Virus record (IMG/VR): IMGVR_UViG_3300034126_000020 | Coordinates: 128,001-192,000 of that record | DNA length: 64,000 nucleotides | Reading direction: 5' to 3' (one strand) | Source: a virus | Taxonomy: Duplodnaviria; Caudoviricetes | The notes under the pieces: model-generated | Told to the model about the DNA's origin: nothing | The model's database searches: none | Seen by the model: only the letters and a program-made list of their open reading frames with translations | Position numbers and translations under genes: made by a program | Shown here: positions 2,112 to 38,606 of the stretch, piece by piece | Position numbering within the stretch: the stretch's first letter is position 1 | How the letters are laid out: the number at the start of each line of letters is the position of its first letter

Positions 2112-2229
2112 GGGTCGTCCTAGGGAGACTCGAACTCCCGACCTCTGCCGCGTTGTTAAGCCCCTGATTCCCCCGCTGAGGAGGGAGGGGCTTGAAAGGC
2201 AGCGCTCTAACCGACTGAGCTACAGGACT
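2112..2229 (-). tRNA. tRNA-like gene with a hairpin inserted in the anticodon loop (identity uncertain)
   Basis: Canonical D arm GCTC-AGTCGGTTA-GAGC, T arm GGGAG-TTCGAGT-CTCCC and anticodon stem CTGCC/GGCAG, but the loop is 48 nt and the 3' end reads ACCC rather than ACCA. Confidence 0.75.
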
Positions 2230-2233
2230 AAAA

Positions 2234-2309
2234 TGGCTCCACGACCTGGACTCGAACCAGGGACACTACGGTTAACAGCCGTATGCTCTACCAACTGAGC
2301 TATCGCGGA
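2234..2309 (-). tRNA. trnN: tRNA-Asn(GUU)
   Basis: TACGG-CTGTTAA-CCGTA; full cloverleaf with CCA. Confidence 0.97.
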
Positions 2310-2310
2310 A

Positions 2311-2410
2311 TGGCGTTCACTGCTGGGCTGTACCCAGACCCCCTGAGCGACCTACCCTTGTCCGGTTGACCCGCAGGCGACCGAGGATAAGCTGCCAATG
2401 GGCAGTGAAC
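2311..2410 (-). ncRNA. Putative CCA-ended tRNA-mimic RNA B (100 nt)
   Basis: GTTCACTG/CAGTGAAC 8-bp stem + G + CCA; adjacent 5-bp hairpin CTGGG-TACAG-CCCAG; long irregular inner hairpin. Confidence 0.6.
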
Positions 2411-2419
2411 GGTTTATCA

Positions 2420-2539: not shown

Positions 2540-2614
2540 TGGAAGAGGTATCTGGGATCGAACCAGAGAATGATGGGATCAAAGCCCATTGCCTTACCGC
2601 TTGGCTATACCTCT
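2540..2614 (-). tRNA. trnQ: tRNA-Gln(UUG)
   Basis: ATGGG-CTTTGAT-CCCAT; cloverleaf with CCA. Confidence 0.95.
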
Positions 2615-3065: not shown

Positions 3066-3200
3066 AACGCTCGAAGCCTAGGACGTTTTTCGCCTACAAC
3101 CGTTTTAAGGGGTAAGGGACAAAGGCTCTTCACATAGACTACGTACATCGTGTATTTTTTTACACGATTACAAGGACTTACCGGAGAGACAGGCATAAAC

Positions 3201-3234: not shown

Positions 3235-4077
3235 TTACACCAGACGACGGTTACCGTCGGCCAGTTGGACTTCGATTTCGATCTGGAAGTCTTCAGAGAA
3301 CGAGGAGGTCACGTGAGTGATACCGCGCTGTACGTCCATGCCGATGTCGAACAACAGTTCTTCACCGATGTCGCCCGAGATGCCGAAGCCACGCACCATC
3401 TTCTCAACGCGCACAGTGGCGTCGTCGATCTGATCGCCATTCGGACCAAAGACCTTGACGGACTTGACCGGGACGTTGTAGATAGTGCCGGTGTAGCAGC
3501 ATGCGTCGATCTGACCTTCCAGCGCCTTGAAGATGCGTGGCATGATGTCGAAGCGAGTGCCGTTGGCCACCGAGAAACGGATCAGTGCTTTGTGCTGAAC
3601 ACGGGCTTCTGGCAACAGCAGTTCCAGACGCTGGGTCAGAACGGTTTCCAGACCTTGCATCAGACGCAGTTGCTCTTGTTGCAGAGCAAGCTGGTGGATG
3701 TCGAGGACTGGCAGGTTTTCGATGCTGCTCAGTTGAGCTTCAGTCAGCTCTTCTTTTGGCAGCGTCAGCAGCTCTTGACGGAACAAGAAGTCAGAGAGCT
3801 TTTGAAGACGATCGTAGTTCTCAGCACGCTCGCCTTTGAGGCGCTGAATGAACGGAGGCAAATCGGAAGCATCACCGATAGCGATGTACGCTTTCTCGAA
3901 CGTTTCCACTGGCGAGAGGCTCACGTAACCGTCTTCGTATTCGACTACGTAGACTTCCTCTTCCATGTTTGGATGGTTACCGCCGACTGCGCGGGTTTCA
4001 GCAGCCAGGCTGCGGGACATCTTGGCAGCGCGAACAATCTTGGTGCCAGTGTAGTGTTGGTAGGTTGGAAGCGACAT
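3235..4077 (-). CDS. Multi-domain phage protein (YxGTK...YEDGY.S.SP..TFEKAY N-terminal domain, coiled coil, C-terminal beta domain)
   Basis: 280-aa ORF; N-terminal motif recognised from a widespread small phage protein family. Confidence 0.7.
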   Translation of the reverse strand: MSLPTYQHYTGTKIVRAAKMSRSLAAETRAVGGNHPNMEEEVYVVEYEDGYVSLSPVETFEKAYIAIGDASDLPPFIQRLKGERAENYDRLQKLSDFLFRQELLTLPKEELTEAQLSSIENLPVLDIHQLALQQEQLRLMQGLETVLTQRLELLLPEARVQHKALIRFSVANGTRFDIMPRIFKALEGQIDACCYTGTIYNVPVKSVKVFGPNGDQIDDATVRVEKMVRGFGISGDIGEELLFDIGMDVQRGITHVTSSFSEDFQIEIEVQLADGNRRLV

Positions 4078-22285: not shown

Positions 22286-24520
22286 TTACTCCGTGTATTC
22301 GTTGGTGAGTTGCTTGCCGGAGCATTCGAACATGTTGCGCATGTAGGCCAACGGTCGATGTCCCCCAACAGGCACCACGGCACGGTCGAGTACTTCTTCG
22401 ACGTTTGTAGGTGTAGGGTGGGTCAACAACCGTCGCAGCACGAACTTGTGCGCAATTGGGTTGTTGGACGCATCCTTCTGATCCGCGATCGCTTCACCAC
22501 CGCACACGGCAGCTTCGGACCGGAACTCAGACTCACCAACACGGATGGATGACTGACGACCTGGAGAGTCGTACTTGTCGTTGTTACTCAGACGAGCAGT
22601 CGTACCAAAGACGTTGCACTTCGCAGACGATGCAGCCATCCACGAGTCTTCAGCAGTCTTCTCAAGGTTGATGTAGTAGGACGGGGCAATCAACATCGGT
22701 TCACGAGAAACCTTCATGTTGCCATCGCGACCACGGAAACGCACCGGCGTAATAAACGGCGGCCAGCGTTCTTTGATGGTGCGAATCACGTCCGGCATGT
22801 GAATCGGGTTGTTGGTCGGCATCTCCAGATCGAGCCCGTACATGTGGTCGTACATCACGGACGCCACTTGCGTGTACATGTACTCCGGGTTGAACCGGCG
22901 GTACTCGGGGTCGGTCAGGTCTTGCCAGTGGAACGGTACCACAACCTTGTAGAACTCCAGCAGCTCATTAAAGGCTGCCTCTACCAAGTCACGGTTCTCC
23001 GGCGCGAAGACCGCGTCGTCAGCTTCTTCTTCAGTGATCTGCGTATTCAGCGGAAAGCCGAAGGAAGCTTGGATGCGTTTGCCCAAGTCGCGGGCTGCAC
23101 CCGAGATGATCATTTCGATCGGGGACGCTGGAGTTACCCGGTTCCACCGGGAGTTCGGGTCGACCACGATGTCAGCGACGATACCGTTCTCATCGACTGG
23201 CATGTCTTCGTCATCAACCACCTCAACGACTACCGACTTGTTCCCGTTGATGTCGGTGATCTTATAGCCCTTGTTGGGAACCGACAGGTACTTGAACGTA
23301 ATCTCTACGCGCCAAGCATCCAGTTTGAGCCCACGGTAGACTTTGTCGACCTTGCCGTTGTCATCGTACTTCTTGTTGAACCCACCGTCAGGACGGATGT
23401 AGTCCGGCGTCACGCGGCCAATGGCCTCGTACACCAGATGGCTCAGTGCCGGTTCCATGGGCAGTTCAGTGAACCCACGGCGGCGTGCATCTTTGCGCTT
23501 CTCGACCCAGAAGTCCACAATCTTCTTGTAGAACTCAGTGTCAGCGTTGTAGTACTTGAGCAGTTGCTCATCCATACCCACAGGCAGCGGCGGAATCGGG
23601 ATCGAGGTGTTACGCTCAACCTTGATGTCCACTACCTCAGCATCAATGTGCTGTACGAAGCGCTTGCGGTCGAAGATGTAGTCCGGCTGCATCAACGCAT
23701 CGACAGTCATGTTTGCCACAGCGCTGATTGGATCGTAGCGGCGCAGAGCCACCAACAGTCCGGTACTGCTCACCTTCTCGCCCAAGTCCGGCATGATCTT
23801 GTAGATCCCCGGGATGGTCGATTGGTTCGTTGGGAAGAACTCTCGACCGAATTCAAACACTCGGGTCTCAAATCCTGTGGGAGCCAACGACTCCAGATAA
23901 CCACGGCGTGCCTTAACGCCGTCTTCAGTCCCTGCCACGTCGGACGCCATGAGCACGTTTGTCTCACGGCCGTACATGTAGTTCTTGTGTTCGTCAATCA
24001 ACGGGCTGTGTGCCAGTCGAGTGCCTTTCTTGAACCTGACCCCTTTGCGCATCTTGTCGAGCGCATCGCGGTTACGCTTGAACTCCGTGCCGAAATGCTG
24101 GTGAGTGACGTGATAGTCCGTCAGCATGGTAAGCCCAAGTTCCTTCGTGCGAAGGTTCTCGTAGATCACCGCTGTCTGAGGAGAATGACGGATACGGTTT
24201 GCGCCTGCCGTATGGCCAAAGCGTGGGATGATCTCGAGCACCTCGACATCGTCATCGAACTCGATTGAGAACGTGGCTTCGCCAAAGGGCCGCTCCATCC
24301 CAGAACGGATGCGTTTGCGCATGGGGCTTTTGATAACCACCATCTGCGCCAAGTTACCAGTAAACATCGCCGCCCGGCTGGCGGAGATGTGCCGGATAAA
24401 CGGGTTGAGTCCGTACAGCGACATCAACTCAGGGTGCAACTCAACTGGGTTGTGCCATTCTTGCTGCGCATAGAGCCGAGCCAACTGCTCTTGCACGGAC
24501 GGGGTACTGTCGTTGAACAT
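22286..24520 (-). CDS. Non-virion RNAP beta C-terminal subunit (phiKZ gp71-73-like), uninterrupted
   Basis: GYKITDINGNKSVV, DMPVDENG..ADIVVDP and YYINLEK beta motifs. Confidence 0.9.
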   Translation of the reverse strand: MFNDSTPSVQEQLARLYAQQEWHNPVELHPELMSLYGLNPFIRHISASRAAMFTGNLAQMVVIKSPMRKRIRSGMERPFGEATFSIEFDDDVEVLEIIPRFGHTAGANRIRHSPQTAVIYENLRTKELGLTMLTDYHVTHQHFGTEFKRNRDALDKMRKGVRFKKGTRLAHSPLIDEHKNYMYGRETNVLMASDVAGTEDGVKARRGYLESLAPTGFETRVFEFGREFFPTNQSTIPGIYKIMPDLGEKVSSTGLLVALRRYDPISAVANMTVDALMQPDYIFDRKRFVQHIDAEVVDIKVERNTSIPIPPLPVGMDEQLLKYYNADTEFYKKIVDFWVEKRKDARRRGFTELPMEPALSHLVYEAIGRVTPDYIRPDGGFNKKYDDNGKVDKVYRGLKLDAWRVEITFKYLSVPNKGYKITDINGNKSVVVEVVDDEDMPVDENGIVADIVVDPNSRWNRVTPASPIEMIISGAARDLGKRIQASFGFPLNTQITEEEADDAVFAPENRDLVEAAFNELLEFYKVVVPFHWQDLTDPEYRRFNPEYMYTQVASVMYDHMYGLDLEMPTNNPIHMPDVIRTIKERWPPFITPVRFRGRDGNMKVSREPMLIAPSYYINLEKTAEDSWMAASSAKCNVFGTTARLSNNDKYDSPGRQSSIRVGESEFRSEAAVCGGEAIADQKDASNNPIAHKFVLRRLLTHPTPTNVEEVLDRAVVPVGGHRPLAYMRNMFECSGKQLTNEYTE

Positions 24521-35153: not shown

Positions 35154-36617
35154 TCATCGTGATACCTGGTCGCCCTCGACGATCCAGCTGGTAATCGTCG
35201 CAATCAACGGCGGCGGAAGCGTCGTGTTGCGGGACACCGTGAATGGCTTGTCGAGGTCCATGACGCCTGTGACGGGATCATGGCGGGACATGACTTTCGC
35301 GTTCTTCAGGTCAAGCGGTAGCTCGCCCCAGAGTGCGTCACCATCGAAGTCAGCGTTCTTGTCGATCAAGTTGAGCGGCGAGATGCTGATGGTGTTGTCT
35401 GTCGGGTCCGGCTTGATCGTGTCGATCTGGTTGTAGCCAATCGAGCCACGGGTCAGCGTCGGGTTACGACCGAAGGTGGTTGGAATGGTGCCGTTCGGAG
35501 CTTCGGCTAGTAGCTCCTTGAACAACCGGTCCAGCTCAGGGTGCCAACGCAGTGTGTTCTCGTAGATCAGAGCCTGCATCTCGTTGGGGATATACCCCTG
35601 AGTGAGCAGCTTGTTCTGCAAGTGCACCTTAAACAGCAAGGTACTGGCAGACCACGGCATCTCCATCCCATCTTGACGGTGGGGCTTCTGACGCGACGTG
35701 ATCACCGCACGGAACCCGAAGTACGGACGTGTGCCGTAGATCAGCTTACGTGCCACACCAGGCTTCTTGAAGATCACCTCAGACTCGAAGGTCTTATAGT
35801 AGTCATTGAAGTGCTGGAGTGCGCTGACAACGCGACCCTCTTTAACAGCCTGAGCCAGCTTGGGCTGATTCTCGGCAGTCTCACGGTTGTCGATCCCGAT
35901 CAGGATGTGCGCGGCGTTAACCGCAGACACCATCTTGGGGTCAGCCGTGATACGGTTGTTGGAGTTTTCCTTGATGAACCCAAGACGCGTTGGGAATGGC
36001 AGGTAATCCGAGAACGTCCGGTCGAAGTTCTCCTGCAAGAAGCGCATGATCTTTCTACGCTTACGAGCAGATGCCGAAGGACCAATCAAGCCAGCCTTAA
36101 ACAACGCTACCAGGATGGACTCGTAGTGCTCGACAAAGTGGTTGTAGCCACGAGGGATTTCCAGCTTATCCAACTTGCGCATCTTGTCGGGAGCCAGGGG
36201 AGAGGCTGCCGTGTAGCGCGGGTTACAAAGATACTCCAGGATGTTGAAGTTCGAATGCGTCAGGTTCTTCGACAGAATCCGCCACACTGTTAAGTTGATG
36301 AATTTCTTGATGCCTGCCGGGCACTTGATCCACAGGAGAGTCTCCAATGGTTTCTCAGTGATCGGCATAACCAAGCTCAGACAGTCATTACAGCGGATGC
36401 CGTAATTGTCCATGCCGTGGATAAGTCCACAGTCACAGCTCGCCGTGTTGTTCAGCGAGTCCCCGTCCAGGCTGGCGTAAATCAGGTTGTTCAGCTTGAG
36501 ACGATCAGCCTCAAGATCGATGTTGAAGTCGTTCATCAGGATCGCTGGGTGCGACTGATGCATGAACATGGTGTCGTAGCCCACCACACGTAAGTAAATG
36601 CCATTACGCTTTTTCAT
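35154..36617 (-). CDS. Non-virion RNAP beta-prime N-terminal catalytic subunit (phiKZ gp55-56.1-like), uninterrupted
   Basis: SCDCG...CNDC zinc finger, GRNPTL, catalytic NADFDGD. Confidence 0.93.
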   Translation of the reverse strand: MKKRNGIYLRVVGYDTMFMHQSHPAILMNDFNIDLEADRLKLNNLIYASLDGDSLNNTASCDCGLIHGMDNYGIRCNDCLSLVMPITEKPLETLLWIKCPAGIKKFINLTVWRILSKNLTHSNFNILEYLCNPRYTAASPLAPDKMRKLDKLEIPRGYNHFVEHYESILVALFKAGLIGPSASARKRRKIMRFLQENFDRTFSDYLPFPTRLGFIKENSNNRITADPKMVSAVNAAHILIGIDNRETAENQPKLAQAVKEGRVVSALQHFNDYYKTFESEVIFKKPGVARKLIYGTRPYFGFRAVITSRQKPHRQDGMEMPWSASTLLFKVHLQNKLLTQGYIPNEMQALIYENTLRWHPELDRLFKELLAEAPNGTIPTTFGRNPTLTRGSIGYNQIDTIKPDPTDNTISISPLNLIDKNADFDGDALWGELPLDLKNAKVMSRHDPVTGVMDLDKPFTVSRNTTLPPPLIATITSWIVEGDQVSR

Positions 36618-36695: not shown

Positions 36696-38606
36696 TTAGA
36701 AGCTATTGCCGAAGCCAAAGCCGTTACCAACGTTGCCACGCAGCGAACGAGCGCCGTCACCAGTCACGCGGCGGCTCGAGAGCATGCCGTGAGTGAGGTC
36801 ACCGCCGACGAAGTCACGGATGCGAGTGTTACCACGCAGGCGACGGTTGCCGAAGGTGTAGTGAGCGGAACGCTGGTCGATGTTGATTTTGCAATCAGCA
36901 ACGGCCATTGCCAGCGCTTCGATGAACTGCGGGTTGACGAAAGCCAGGTCTACGTAACGAGCGAACTTCACGTTGCTCGCGCCGAGGGCGCTGGTCAGTT
37001 GGTCGTACTGCTCGCTGACGCGGATTTCTACGTCCAGGTCAACGCGGTCGATCACGTCCTGATAACGCAGGGCAGATTCGCCTTCGTCATTCGGGTTGGT
37101 GGCCATCCAGCGCAGCAGGTCCCATTCACGCAGATCGCGCTCGTTGCCCTTCTCGTCGATCCAGGTGCCAGTCAGGTAACGAGCACCGGACATTTGCAGC
37201 GGGGTTTCGACGCCCAGTTCACGGGCACGGCGGGTGAAGTTGCCGTTGGTCAGACGGTCGGCGTAGTCGTACAGACGGCCGATGGCGTCCTTGTTGGCGC
37301 TGTCGTCAGTAGCAGCGTCGGACAGCAGGGAGGTGATCCAGCTGTTGTCGCCGCCTTCTTCCAGCTCGATAGCCCAGGCCAGGTTGTCGTCAACCAGGCT
37401 GAAGAAGTACTGAGCCCACTTGTGGGTGTCCAGCGACGCACGGTTGTCGAACTCGACCGGAGTCTTGTCCTGATCCGGGCCGAGGATGTTCAGCAGGCCA
37501 GCATCACGGTGGTCGATTTCGCCGCGAGCGATGTCGCCCGGCAGGTAGGTCTGAGCCCACGCTTGGTCTTTCGAGATGACCGACGCACCAGCCAGAGCCA
37601 GCAACAGCAGCTCAGGGGTGATGCCGTTGGCGTTGGTGTCCATGCGGTTGATCACGTACATCGGAGTGAAGTACGGCTGATCACGGCGCTGGGTACGGCT
37701 CCAACGATCTTGTTCGACCGGCGGGGTGTACATGATGCTGACGTAACCGCCCAGGTTGGCCAGGCCAACAGGGATGTTCTGGTCGCCTTTGCGCACGATG
37801 CCGGCAACGGTAACGGCCAGGTCGGAACGACGTGGCAGACCGTCAGCGGTCATGGCTTCACGGCCAGACAGGTCGACGTTGATTTCCAGGGTCGATTGCT
37901 TGCTCAGCCAGTCCAGCGAGAAGAACAGGTCAGGCTGGAACAGGTTGCTGTAGATCGCTGCCAGAGCGGCCTGGGCGTAGAACACGACCTGACGCACTTC
38001 GGTGTTTTCCGGATCGTTGAAGTCCACTTTGTGGGACACTACGCGCCAGCCGGCACGAACGATCTCGACGCTACGGCGCGACTGATCGAAAGCCTTCTTC
38101 GCGATTTCGTCAACCAGAGCCAGGTAGCTCTCGGTGATGTAGTCGGAGGCGATGATCGGCAGCGGGTAGGTGCGATGGTTGATTTCGACGTTACGCACGG
38201 TGGCGTCGTCGGTCATGCTCGAGGACAGAGCCAGAGCCGACACCAGAACCTTGACGGTGCCGTTGTCTTCGACTGGGTAAGCCAGGATCACCGAGGAGAT
38301 GCTGACGTTGTGCTCGGAAGCTTCCAGACCCAGAACTTGGATCTTGGAGAGGTCGATCAGGCCGGCGCCTGCAACCTGACGCTCTGGATCGAACCAGTGC
38401 TTAACCGACTTAACAGCGTTGACCAGAACTTCGCCGCTGATGCGACGGGACATCGGTGCGCCGAGCAGGCGGTTGATGTCCAGCAGGCCAGCGGTGCCAG
38501 CCTGCGATTCACGGGCAGGGCGCTCAGCACGTTCGCTGCGAGGTTGTTCGGTGCGCGGACGCTCGTTGCTCGAAGCGGTGTTGTCGATGTCGTCTTGTAC
38601 AGCCAT
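36696..38606 (-). CDS. chmA: Chimallin, major nuclear shell protein (phiKZ gp54-like)
   Basis: 636 aa directly upstream of the nvRNAP catalytic subunit; disordered N-terminus, G/F-rich C-terminal tail, extreme codon bias, own promoter and terminator. Confidence 0.88.
   Translation of the reverse strand: MAVQDDIDNTASSNERPRTEQPRSERAERPARESQAGTAGLLDINRLLGAPMSRRISGEVLVNAVKSVKHWFDPERQVAGAGLIDLSKIQVLGLEASEHNVSISSVILAYPVEDNGTVKVLVSALALSSSMTDDATVRNVEINHRTYPLPIIASDYITESYLALVDEIAKKAFDQSRRSVEIVRAGWRVVSHKVDFNDPENTEVRQVVFYAQAALAAIYSNLFQPDLFFSLDWLSKQSTLEINVDLSGREAMTADGLPRRSDLAVTVAGIVRKGDQNIPVGLANLGGYVSIMYTPPVEQDRWSRTQRRDQPYFTPMYVINRMDTNANGITPELLLLALAGASVISKDQAWAQTYLPGDIARGEIDHRDAGLLNILGPDQDKTPVEFDNRASLDTHKWAQYFFSLVDDNLAWAIELEEGGDNSWITSLLSDAATDDSANKDAIGRLYDYADRLTNGNFTRRARELGVETPLQMSGARYLTGTWIDEKGNERDLREWDLLRWMATNPNDEGESALRYQDVIDRVDLDVEIRVSEQYDQLTSALGASNVKFARYVDLAFVNPQFIEALAMAVADCKINIDQRSAHYTFGNRRLRGNTRIRDFVGGDLTHGMLSSRRVTGDGARSLRGNVGNGFGFGNSF

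Follow-up and report, generated by a model that had tools for sequence, protein, structure and literature searches.

A conserved non-coding RNA of about 100 nucleotides is interleaved with the tRNAs of a jumbo phage; its first 23 nucleotides copy the repeat of type I-F CRISPR arrays and its 3′ end resembles that of a tRNA. The element is located on the minus strand at 2311-2410 of the window, the 64,000-nt stretch of DNA analysed here, which spans bases 128001-192000 of an IMG/VR phage genome that is 276,810 bp long and has direct terminal repeats. The RNA is neither a tRNA nor a tRNA-Sec or tmRNA. We tentatively read it as a decoy for Cas6f resembling the RNA anti-CRISPRs of the Racr type, which would be cut from a tRNA precursor by means of its tRNA-like end, and we put the probability of this reading at roughly 0.4. 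A decoy against type I-F defence is the most likely function, and is favoured over a chargeable tRNA mimic.

A folded RNA in the tRNA operon

ARAGORN and Rfam searches together with a genome scan placed the only tRNA cluster of the phage on the minus strand of the window. In the order of transcription it consists of tRNA-Tyr, a 173-nt spacer, tRNA-Asp and tRNA-Gln, a 230-nt spacer, tRNA-Asn, a tRNA with a 41-nt insert, a 76-nt structured spacer and tRNA-His. All of the canonical tRNAs (Tyr, Asp, Gln and Asn) encode their CCA. The 230-nt spacer, bounded upstream by tRNA-Gln(UUG) (2540-2614, minus strand), contains two self-contained folds: a companion RNA, designated M1 (2537-2415), and then the 100-nt element (2410-2311), with tRNA-Asn(GUU) (2234-2309, minus strand) directly downstream of it. 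M1, on the same strand between tRNA-Gln and the element, is closed by a stem of 13-18 bp (ACAUCUUCAAGUA / UACUUGAAGAUGU) and matched no Rfam family; it was found in the window and in the related phages L002 and L018, and is missing from L003.

The element is numbered so that position i corresponds to window coordinate 2411 - i. Its lowest-energy fold is a Y shape (-46.8 kcal/mol, z = -3.4 versus shuffles) made up of the helices P1, P2 and P3 and an NCCA tail. A preliminary description of this DNA had reported an 8-bp terminal stem in which GTTCACTG (2410-2403) pairs with CAGTGAAC (2322-2315) on the minus strand, and this stem was recovered as P1, with the 5′ strand GUUCACUG at 2403-2410 and the 3′ strand CAGUGAAC at 2315-2322 given by both the fold and the alignment. 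The 5-bp hairpin with a TACAG loop reported there (CTGGG-TACAG-CCCAG, 2337-2323) is P3 (CUGGG-UACAG-CCCAG, 2323-2337, minus strand), which has a 5-bp stem and a 5-nt loop and indeed stacks without a gap on the 3′ strand of P1. Also as described, a discriminator G and an encoded CCA follow (2314-2311, minus strand), and one nucleotide, T 2310, separates them from tRNA-Asn starting at 2309. The interior is a single long irregular hairpin both by sequence and in the lowest-energy fold; this arm, P2 (2339-2402, minus strand), has an invariant base and a distal part that has diverged with its pairing kept.

Relatives were collected with a 532-aa protein encoded in the neighbourhood, which led to five IMG/VR contigs, and by a pattern scan of metagenomes, which led to L018. 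Besides the window phage, the element is carried at the same place by three related uncultured phages of 258-277 kb, namely L002 (90% amino acid identity in the 532-aa protein), L003 (identical to L017; 88%) and L018. It is absent from L004 (78%), where the Gln-Asn spacer is 5 nt long, and from Pseudomonas phage pPa_SNUABM_DT01 (72%). The four known copies come from close relatives only. A covariance model (R1) made from these copies found exactly one of them per carrying genome; an additional weak R1 match in G003 (23 bits) was rejected, as it lies in coding-like DNA with a fold z of -0.3. Pattern scans of IMG/VR and metagenomes for the element gave no copies beyond the three relatives, and BLAST against GenBank phages returned tRNA matches only. 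An 18-mer scan of 185,579 genomes yielded 13 matches, about the number expected by chance, in unrelated and mostly coding DNA, with no array carrying this hairpin among them.

In the four-way alignment 99.3% of the cells are paired and six pairs are changed on both sides, with none in the slid-partner controls. One of these two-sided changes lies in the terminal stem, where position 2 and its partner went from U-A to C-G, and the other five lie in or beyond P2. Both ends (nt 1-20 and nt 66-96) hardly vary, and the distal long arm is heavily diverged. The P3 stem is the same in all four copies, with one loop site either C or U (UACAG/UAUAG), and the folds of the homologues have z scores of -2.9 to -5.2. 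As 3′ tail, the copies of the window and L003 have GCCA, that of L018 has ACCA and that of L002, one C shorter, has ACA. Conservation of the stem and the CCA in relatives, whose lack would refute the reading of the preliminary description by its own account, was thus found for the stem, with one covarying pair, and for the CCA in three of the four copies, and the RNA is, as had been proposed, a discrete structured one within the tRNA operon, conserved in three relatives with covariation. The geometry of stem and NCCA alone is not significant: each shuffled window contains on average about 3.6 perfect 8-bp stems that enclose 40-120 nt and have NCCA after them. Therefore it is because of the conserved ends and the paired alignment with its compensatory changes, and not because of the geometry, that we conclude that the element is a real, selected, folded RNA of narrow distribution.

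Several other features of the operon were observed. The tRNA at 2115-2229 (minus strand) has canonical D, T and acceptor arms and a 41-nt hairpin inserted after anticodon-loop nt 38. Its anticodon was read as UCA by ARAGORN with introns; the relatives have ttttcag at this site, which may give UUC (Glu), and the stem of the insert covaries. A group I intron was rejected, the insert of 41 nt being too short, and the insert may make this RNA a natural tRNA scaffold or decoy. Long spacer RNAs with canonical T arms (GGTTCGA-type) and long closing stems were found in L002 (15828-16061) and L003 (15738-15936), and these are closer to T4 species 1 RNA than the 100-nt element is. Neither the element nor the other odd operon RNAs of the window, L002 and L003 matched any Rfam family, either at gathering thresholds or at E <= 10, and the non-tRNA modules of the operon vary from genome to genome. 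Upstream, between the terminator of the preceding gene and the first RNA of the operon, lies an inverted repeat (atcgtgta-aaaaaa-tacacgat, at about 3150-3175, minus strand) followed by tatg; it is conserved in L018 and may serve the RNA operon as a phage promoter or operator.

Comparison with tRNA-like RNAs and type I-F repeats

The preliminary description had taken the element for a tRNA mimic with an acceptor/T-like minihelix, comparable to tRNA-Sec, to a tmRNA-like domain or to T4 species 1 RNA. ARAGORN, run with and without introns, found nothing at 2311-2410. The Rfam models for tRNA, tRNA-Sec and tmRNA likewise gave nothing there even at E <= 10, and a tRNA-Sec or tmRNA-like identity was therefore discarded. 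With RNase P minihelices, tmRNA and tRNA-Sec the element shares a coaxial stack of 8 + 5(6) bp and an end made of discriminator and CCA, but unlike them it lacks a T-loop and a D arm and is not matched by the models. Of the T-like minihelix, the acceptor-like stem, the stacked hairpin and the NCCA hold; the T-loop does not, since the loop is the 5-nt UACAG/UAUAG and a 7-nt UUCRANY T-loop on a 5-bp stem is not present in the element. Neither G3:U70 nor any other obvious aminoacylation identity element is visible in the sequence.

T4 species 1 and 2 RNAs (rnaC and rnaD) resemble the element in being small non-tRNA RNAs on the tRNA strand of a phage tRNA cluster, and their function is listed as unknown. 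When both were fetched and folded, however, neither was like the element in sequence or fold, and rnaC has a canonical T arm (GGGUUCGAAUCCC) and no encoded CCA. The analogy to T4 species 1 RNA was therefore not sustained.

For comparison with CRISPR repeats, the I-F repeats GTTCACTGCCGCACAGGCAGCTTAGAAA and GTTCACTGCCGTATAGGCAGCTAAGAAA were taken from the supplement of Camara-Wilpert et al. 2023 (PMC10651486). The repeat-like segment of the element, GTTCACTGCC-CATT-GGCAGCTTA (nt 1-23; 2388-2410, minus strand), starts at repeat position 1. Aligned with GTTCACTGCCGCACAGGCAGCTTAGAAA, the element is identical at 21 of 28 positions, the match starting at nt 1 of both, and the differences are confined to the loop, which is one nucleotide shorter, and to the last four nucleotides. 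The blocks GTTCACTGCC and GGCAGCTTA are exact, a 10+9-nt match to the repeat. The copy in L002 is identical at about 18 of 28 positions. The validated Racrs IF1-3 are identical to their model repeats at 22-26 of 28-29 positions and differ from them mainly past the hairpin (PMC10651486), so that the element falls just under the validated range.

The pattern GTTCACTGCC N3-6 GGCAGCT was found once in the window and in none of 100 shuffles. In 401 Pseudomonas genomes (about 2.4 Gb) it identified I-F arrays with a 60-nt period, together with a few orphan repeats and about four matches that look like chance; the chance rate is therefore roughly 5e-4 per phage genome. By plain local alignment to the I-F repeat the element scored 17, which was reached by one of 60 simulated genomes and is marginal genome-wide, and against the Pseudomonas consensus repeat it scored 13. 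Therefore, the case rests on the pattern, exact in stem and flanks and free in the loop, and on its location in a conserved non-coding RNA. One pattern match is present in the window and in the whole genome, with no second repeat at spacer distance, and the unit is thus solitary. When repeats of types I-E, I-C and V-A were aligned locally to the genome, no match fell in the RNA operon. A second I-F-like site, TTCACCACCGCACACGGCAGCTT at 22493-22515 (plus strand; 20 of 23 identical, score 16), was set aside as a chance match, being antisense within a 744-aa ORF and forming no hairpin.

The segment contains a hairpin of potential Cas6f type, hairpin A (CUGCC-CAUU-GGCAG, nt 6-19; 2392-2405, minus strand), with 5 bp and a 4-nt loop, which would form in place of P1 and the base of P2. 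On its own it has a free energy of -7.2 kcal/mol; it lies outside the lowest-energy fold, and imposing it on the full-length RNA carries a penalty of 8.5-12.5 kcal/mol. Its formation would need capture during transcription or tight binding by a protein. The covariation is equally compatible with the hairpin A fold and the Y fold, because the covarying pairs are all in helices common to both. Hairpin A is intact in three of the four homologues, with a C-G closing pair and a C following it; in L003 the second pair from the base is broken by an A-to-C change (GGCCG) that is neutral for the Y fold. A loop of 5 nt is found in all 44 solitary I-F units of IMG/VR that have a repeat-like context, and the other IMG/VR pattern matches, whose loops measure 3, 4 or 6 nt, look like chance matches in coding DNA. 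P3, too, has a base of C-G and U-A pairs, with a C after it. Hairpins with a CUG...CAG base are common in the genome (146 in 277 kb), and the resemblance of P3 to a Cas6f substrate is for this reason only suggestive and was not counted.

The 9-mer GATAAACCG at 2410-2418 (minus strand) abuts the I-F-like repeat with an overlap of one nucleotide. It equals the 3′ end, part of the 5′ handle, of E. coli-type I-E repeats (supplement, PMC10651486), and L002 retains it, L018 has it with one C fewer and L003 lacks it. This likeness may be due to chance, because no Cas6e-type hairpin precedes the 9-mer.

Predicted function and alternative readings

Acceptor/T minihelices are substrates of RNase P, and 3′ trimming stops at CCA. 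From the sequence and its conservation we infer that the element is a non-coding RNA gene of about 100 nt co-transcribed with the phage tRNAs, and that its terminal helix, stacked hairpin and discriminator/CCA imitate the acceptor/T half of a pre-tRNA, so that RNase P, cutting at the 5′ end of the element and at the 5′ end of tRNA-Asn, and trimming by a 3′ exonuclease would release a stable CCA-ended RNA. The 3′ end of the element would in that case be set by the RNase P cut at tRNA-Asn. With nt 1-23 copying the I-F repeat, the released RNA would thus be a solitary-repeat mimic of the Racr type. Hairpin A, and possibly P3 with the same C-G/U-A base, would be shown during transcription or on later refolding, bind host Cas6f and titrate Cas6f/Cas7f away from real crRNAs, while its place in the tRNA operon would ensure high expression and clean ends and make a dedicated promoter or terminator unnecessary.

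In RacrIF1, Cas6f binds and cuts the repeat hairpin, a C6/G20 pair is essential and changes of the 5′ handle are tolerated; the inhibitor is the RNA upstream of the Cas6f cut, which ends in the hairpin and nucleates a Cas6f-Cas7f complex without Cas5f and Cas8f (PMC10651486). M1 would form the 5′ extension of any product that Cas6f would cut at hairpin A. Like RacrIF1-3 (PMC10651486), the element is a single array-less copy of the I-F repeat in non-coding phage DNA, with stem and flanks conserved and loop and 5′ handle diverged, and the predicted host genus has I-F arrays. It differs from them in several respects: it is located in a tRNA operon and has no promoter or terminator of its own, its repeat makes up the 5′ end of an RNA that is closed, Y-shaped and terminated by a tRNA-like NCCA, its loop has 4 rather than 5 nt, its hairpin competes with a stabler fold, it is carried not by a prophage but by a lytic jumbo phage that has a nuclear-shell gene, and no acr gene is nearby. 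To our knowledge, the RNA anti-CRISPRs known so far are stand-alone promoter-to-terminator units, mostly in prophages and plasmids. The element fits a candidate RNA anti-CRISPR of a tRNA-like, operon-embedded and possibly switchable form. If this is true, a repeat mimic would be delivered through a tRNA operon and tRNA-like processing signals, its Cas6f hairpin would be masked by an alternative fold, and there would be a first functional handle on the structured RNAs interleaved with tRNAs in the RNA operons of jumbo phages.

The nearest cultured relative, Pseudomonas phage pPa_SNUABM_DT01, has P. aeruginosa as its host, and P. fluorescens SBW25 is infected by a DT01-like jumbo phage. The genus Pseudomonas is classically associated with type I-F, as borne out by the arrays found: 18 of the 401 Pseudomonas genomes matched the I-F pattern, about 11 of them with arrays. 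None of 50 spacers from three Pseudomonas I-F arrays matched the phage. A Cas6f gene (PF09618) was not found in the phage, and none of seven neighbouring ORFs searched against PHROGs and Pfam belonged to an anti-CRISPR family; linkage to acr genes is supportive for Racrs but not required.

Homologues of phiKZ gp54, the nuclear shell protein (23% identity, E = 8e-13), and of gp55 lie side by side in the window (36774-38312 and about 35367-36602, respectively, both minus strand). Because this chimallin (gp54) homologue is adjacent to a homologue of gp55, the virion RNA polymerase beta subunit, the phage is probably a nucleus-forming chimallivirus that builds a shell. Phage nuclear shells are described in published work as keeping CRISPR nucleases off phage DNA. 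A shell that excludes DNA-cutting CRISPR enzymes makes a decoy against type I-F seem less needed, and a true decoy would place an RNA anti-CRISPR in a group of phages thought to be free of the need for defence against DNA-targeting CRISPR. A more elaborate and improbable version of the decoy reading would meet this difficulty: a switchable decoy on a tRNA scaffold, CCA-capped and mass-produced by the tRNA maturation enzymes of the host, with the repeat hairpin hidden in a stable closed fold and exposed to Cas6f only in transcription or refolding, would be aimed not at DNA interference but at Cas6f-dependent priming/adaptation or at RNA-targeting systems that borrow I-F crRNAs, and the neighbouring RNAs of about 100 nt would be decoys against other defences.

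Among the alternatives, we consider it possible, though rather doubtful, that the element is a stable tRNA-mimic RNA unrelated to CRISPR whose functional part is the CCA-ended acceptor/T-like minihelix. Such an RNA might be a decoy or substrate for RNase P, for the CCA-adding enzyme or for tRNA-targeting defence nucleases, or might act like T4 species 1/2, and the likeness to the I-F repeat would be vestigial or accidental. The covarying 8-bp stem with its stacked hairpin and NCCA, the CCA encoded by the canonical tRNAs of the operon and the strong energetic preference for the Y fold all agree with it, as do tRNA-derived oddities nearby, such as the tRNA with the 41-nt insert and the long RNAs with true T arms, and the T4 precedent for small stable RNAs within a phage tRNA operon. 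However, it leaves the 10+9-nt exact repeat match starting at nt 1 unexplained, and it has to accommodate a missing T-loop, the lack of any match to tRNA, tmRNA or tRNA-Sec models, an imperfect CCA in L002 and the dissimilarity to both rnaC and rnaD. A passive processing spacer, or a decaying relic that goes back to a captured CRISPR repeat or a dead tRNA, is unlikely; the one role of such a hairpin-rich spacer would be to aid the separation and maturation of the tRNAs beside it, without acting in trans. The absence of the element from close relatives with an otherwise identical operon (L004 with its 5-nt spacer, and DT01), the high variability of spacer content between relatives and the damage to hairpin A in L003 and to the CCA in L002 would be expected of such a spacer or relic, but the six compensatory changes and near-invariant ends argue for a selected folded RNA, and 100 nt with three helices is far larger than the other junctions of the same operon, which have spacers of 1-7 nt. 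Even if the repeat likeness were merely a relic, the element would still be a well-supported new structured RNA of narrow distribution.

Two further readings are very improbable and were rejected. As a crRNA-like guide or regulator, a mini-array of the Cracr type, the element would be cut by Cas6f at hairpin A and at P3 to give a 69-nt RNA loaded into Cascade. It does have two hairpins in the same orientation with C-G/U-A bases, and conserved ends around a variable middle. Viral type I-F Cracrs, however, have pseudo-spacers of 17-21 nt between repeats (Liu et al., bioRxiv 10.1101/2024.10.29.618823), whereas the would-be spacer of the element, about 41 nt, is a conserved hairpin in its own right. 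The 5′ handle varies between copies (CUUAUCCU, CCGAUCCC or CAUAGUCC), only about 11 positions of the 28 nt around P3 agree with the repeat by hand count, and there is a single repeat-like unit, the 54-nt interval to P3 being a conserved hairpin, rather than two units flanking a pseudo-spacer of 17-27 nt. With the Cracr/crlRNA mini-arrays of the same study (Liu et al., bioRxiv 10.1101/2024.10.29.618823) the element would share, as predicted, the engagement of host Cas proteins by a phage CRISPR-repeat-like RNA; those mini-arrays, in contrast to its one unit with a structured interior, consist of repeat, short pseudo-spacer and repeat and guide Cas proteins to promoters. The other reading, a small mobile or recombinogenic palindrome acting at the DNA level through its 9-bp terminal inverted repeats (GTTCACTGC / GCAGTGAAC), would account for the presence and absence of the element among relatives, and the terminal inverted repeats are perfect. 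Against it, there is one copy per genome and no target-site duplication, no further copy was found in the IMG/VR, metagenome and genome searches, and G-U pairs and one-sided changes keep the RNA pairing on the transcribed strand only.

Besides the Racr-like decoy predicted here, one further repeat near a phage tRNA was noticed. In L114 (IMGVR_UViG_3300028581_000047, 3276-3536) a canonical solitary I-F repeat (GTTCACTGCCGAACAGGCAGCTTAGGAAA) precedes a same-strand phage tRNA-Met by 157 nt, a possible further link between a Racr and a tRNA.
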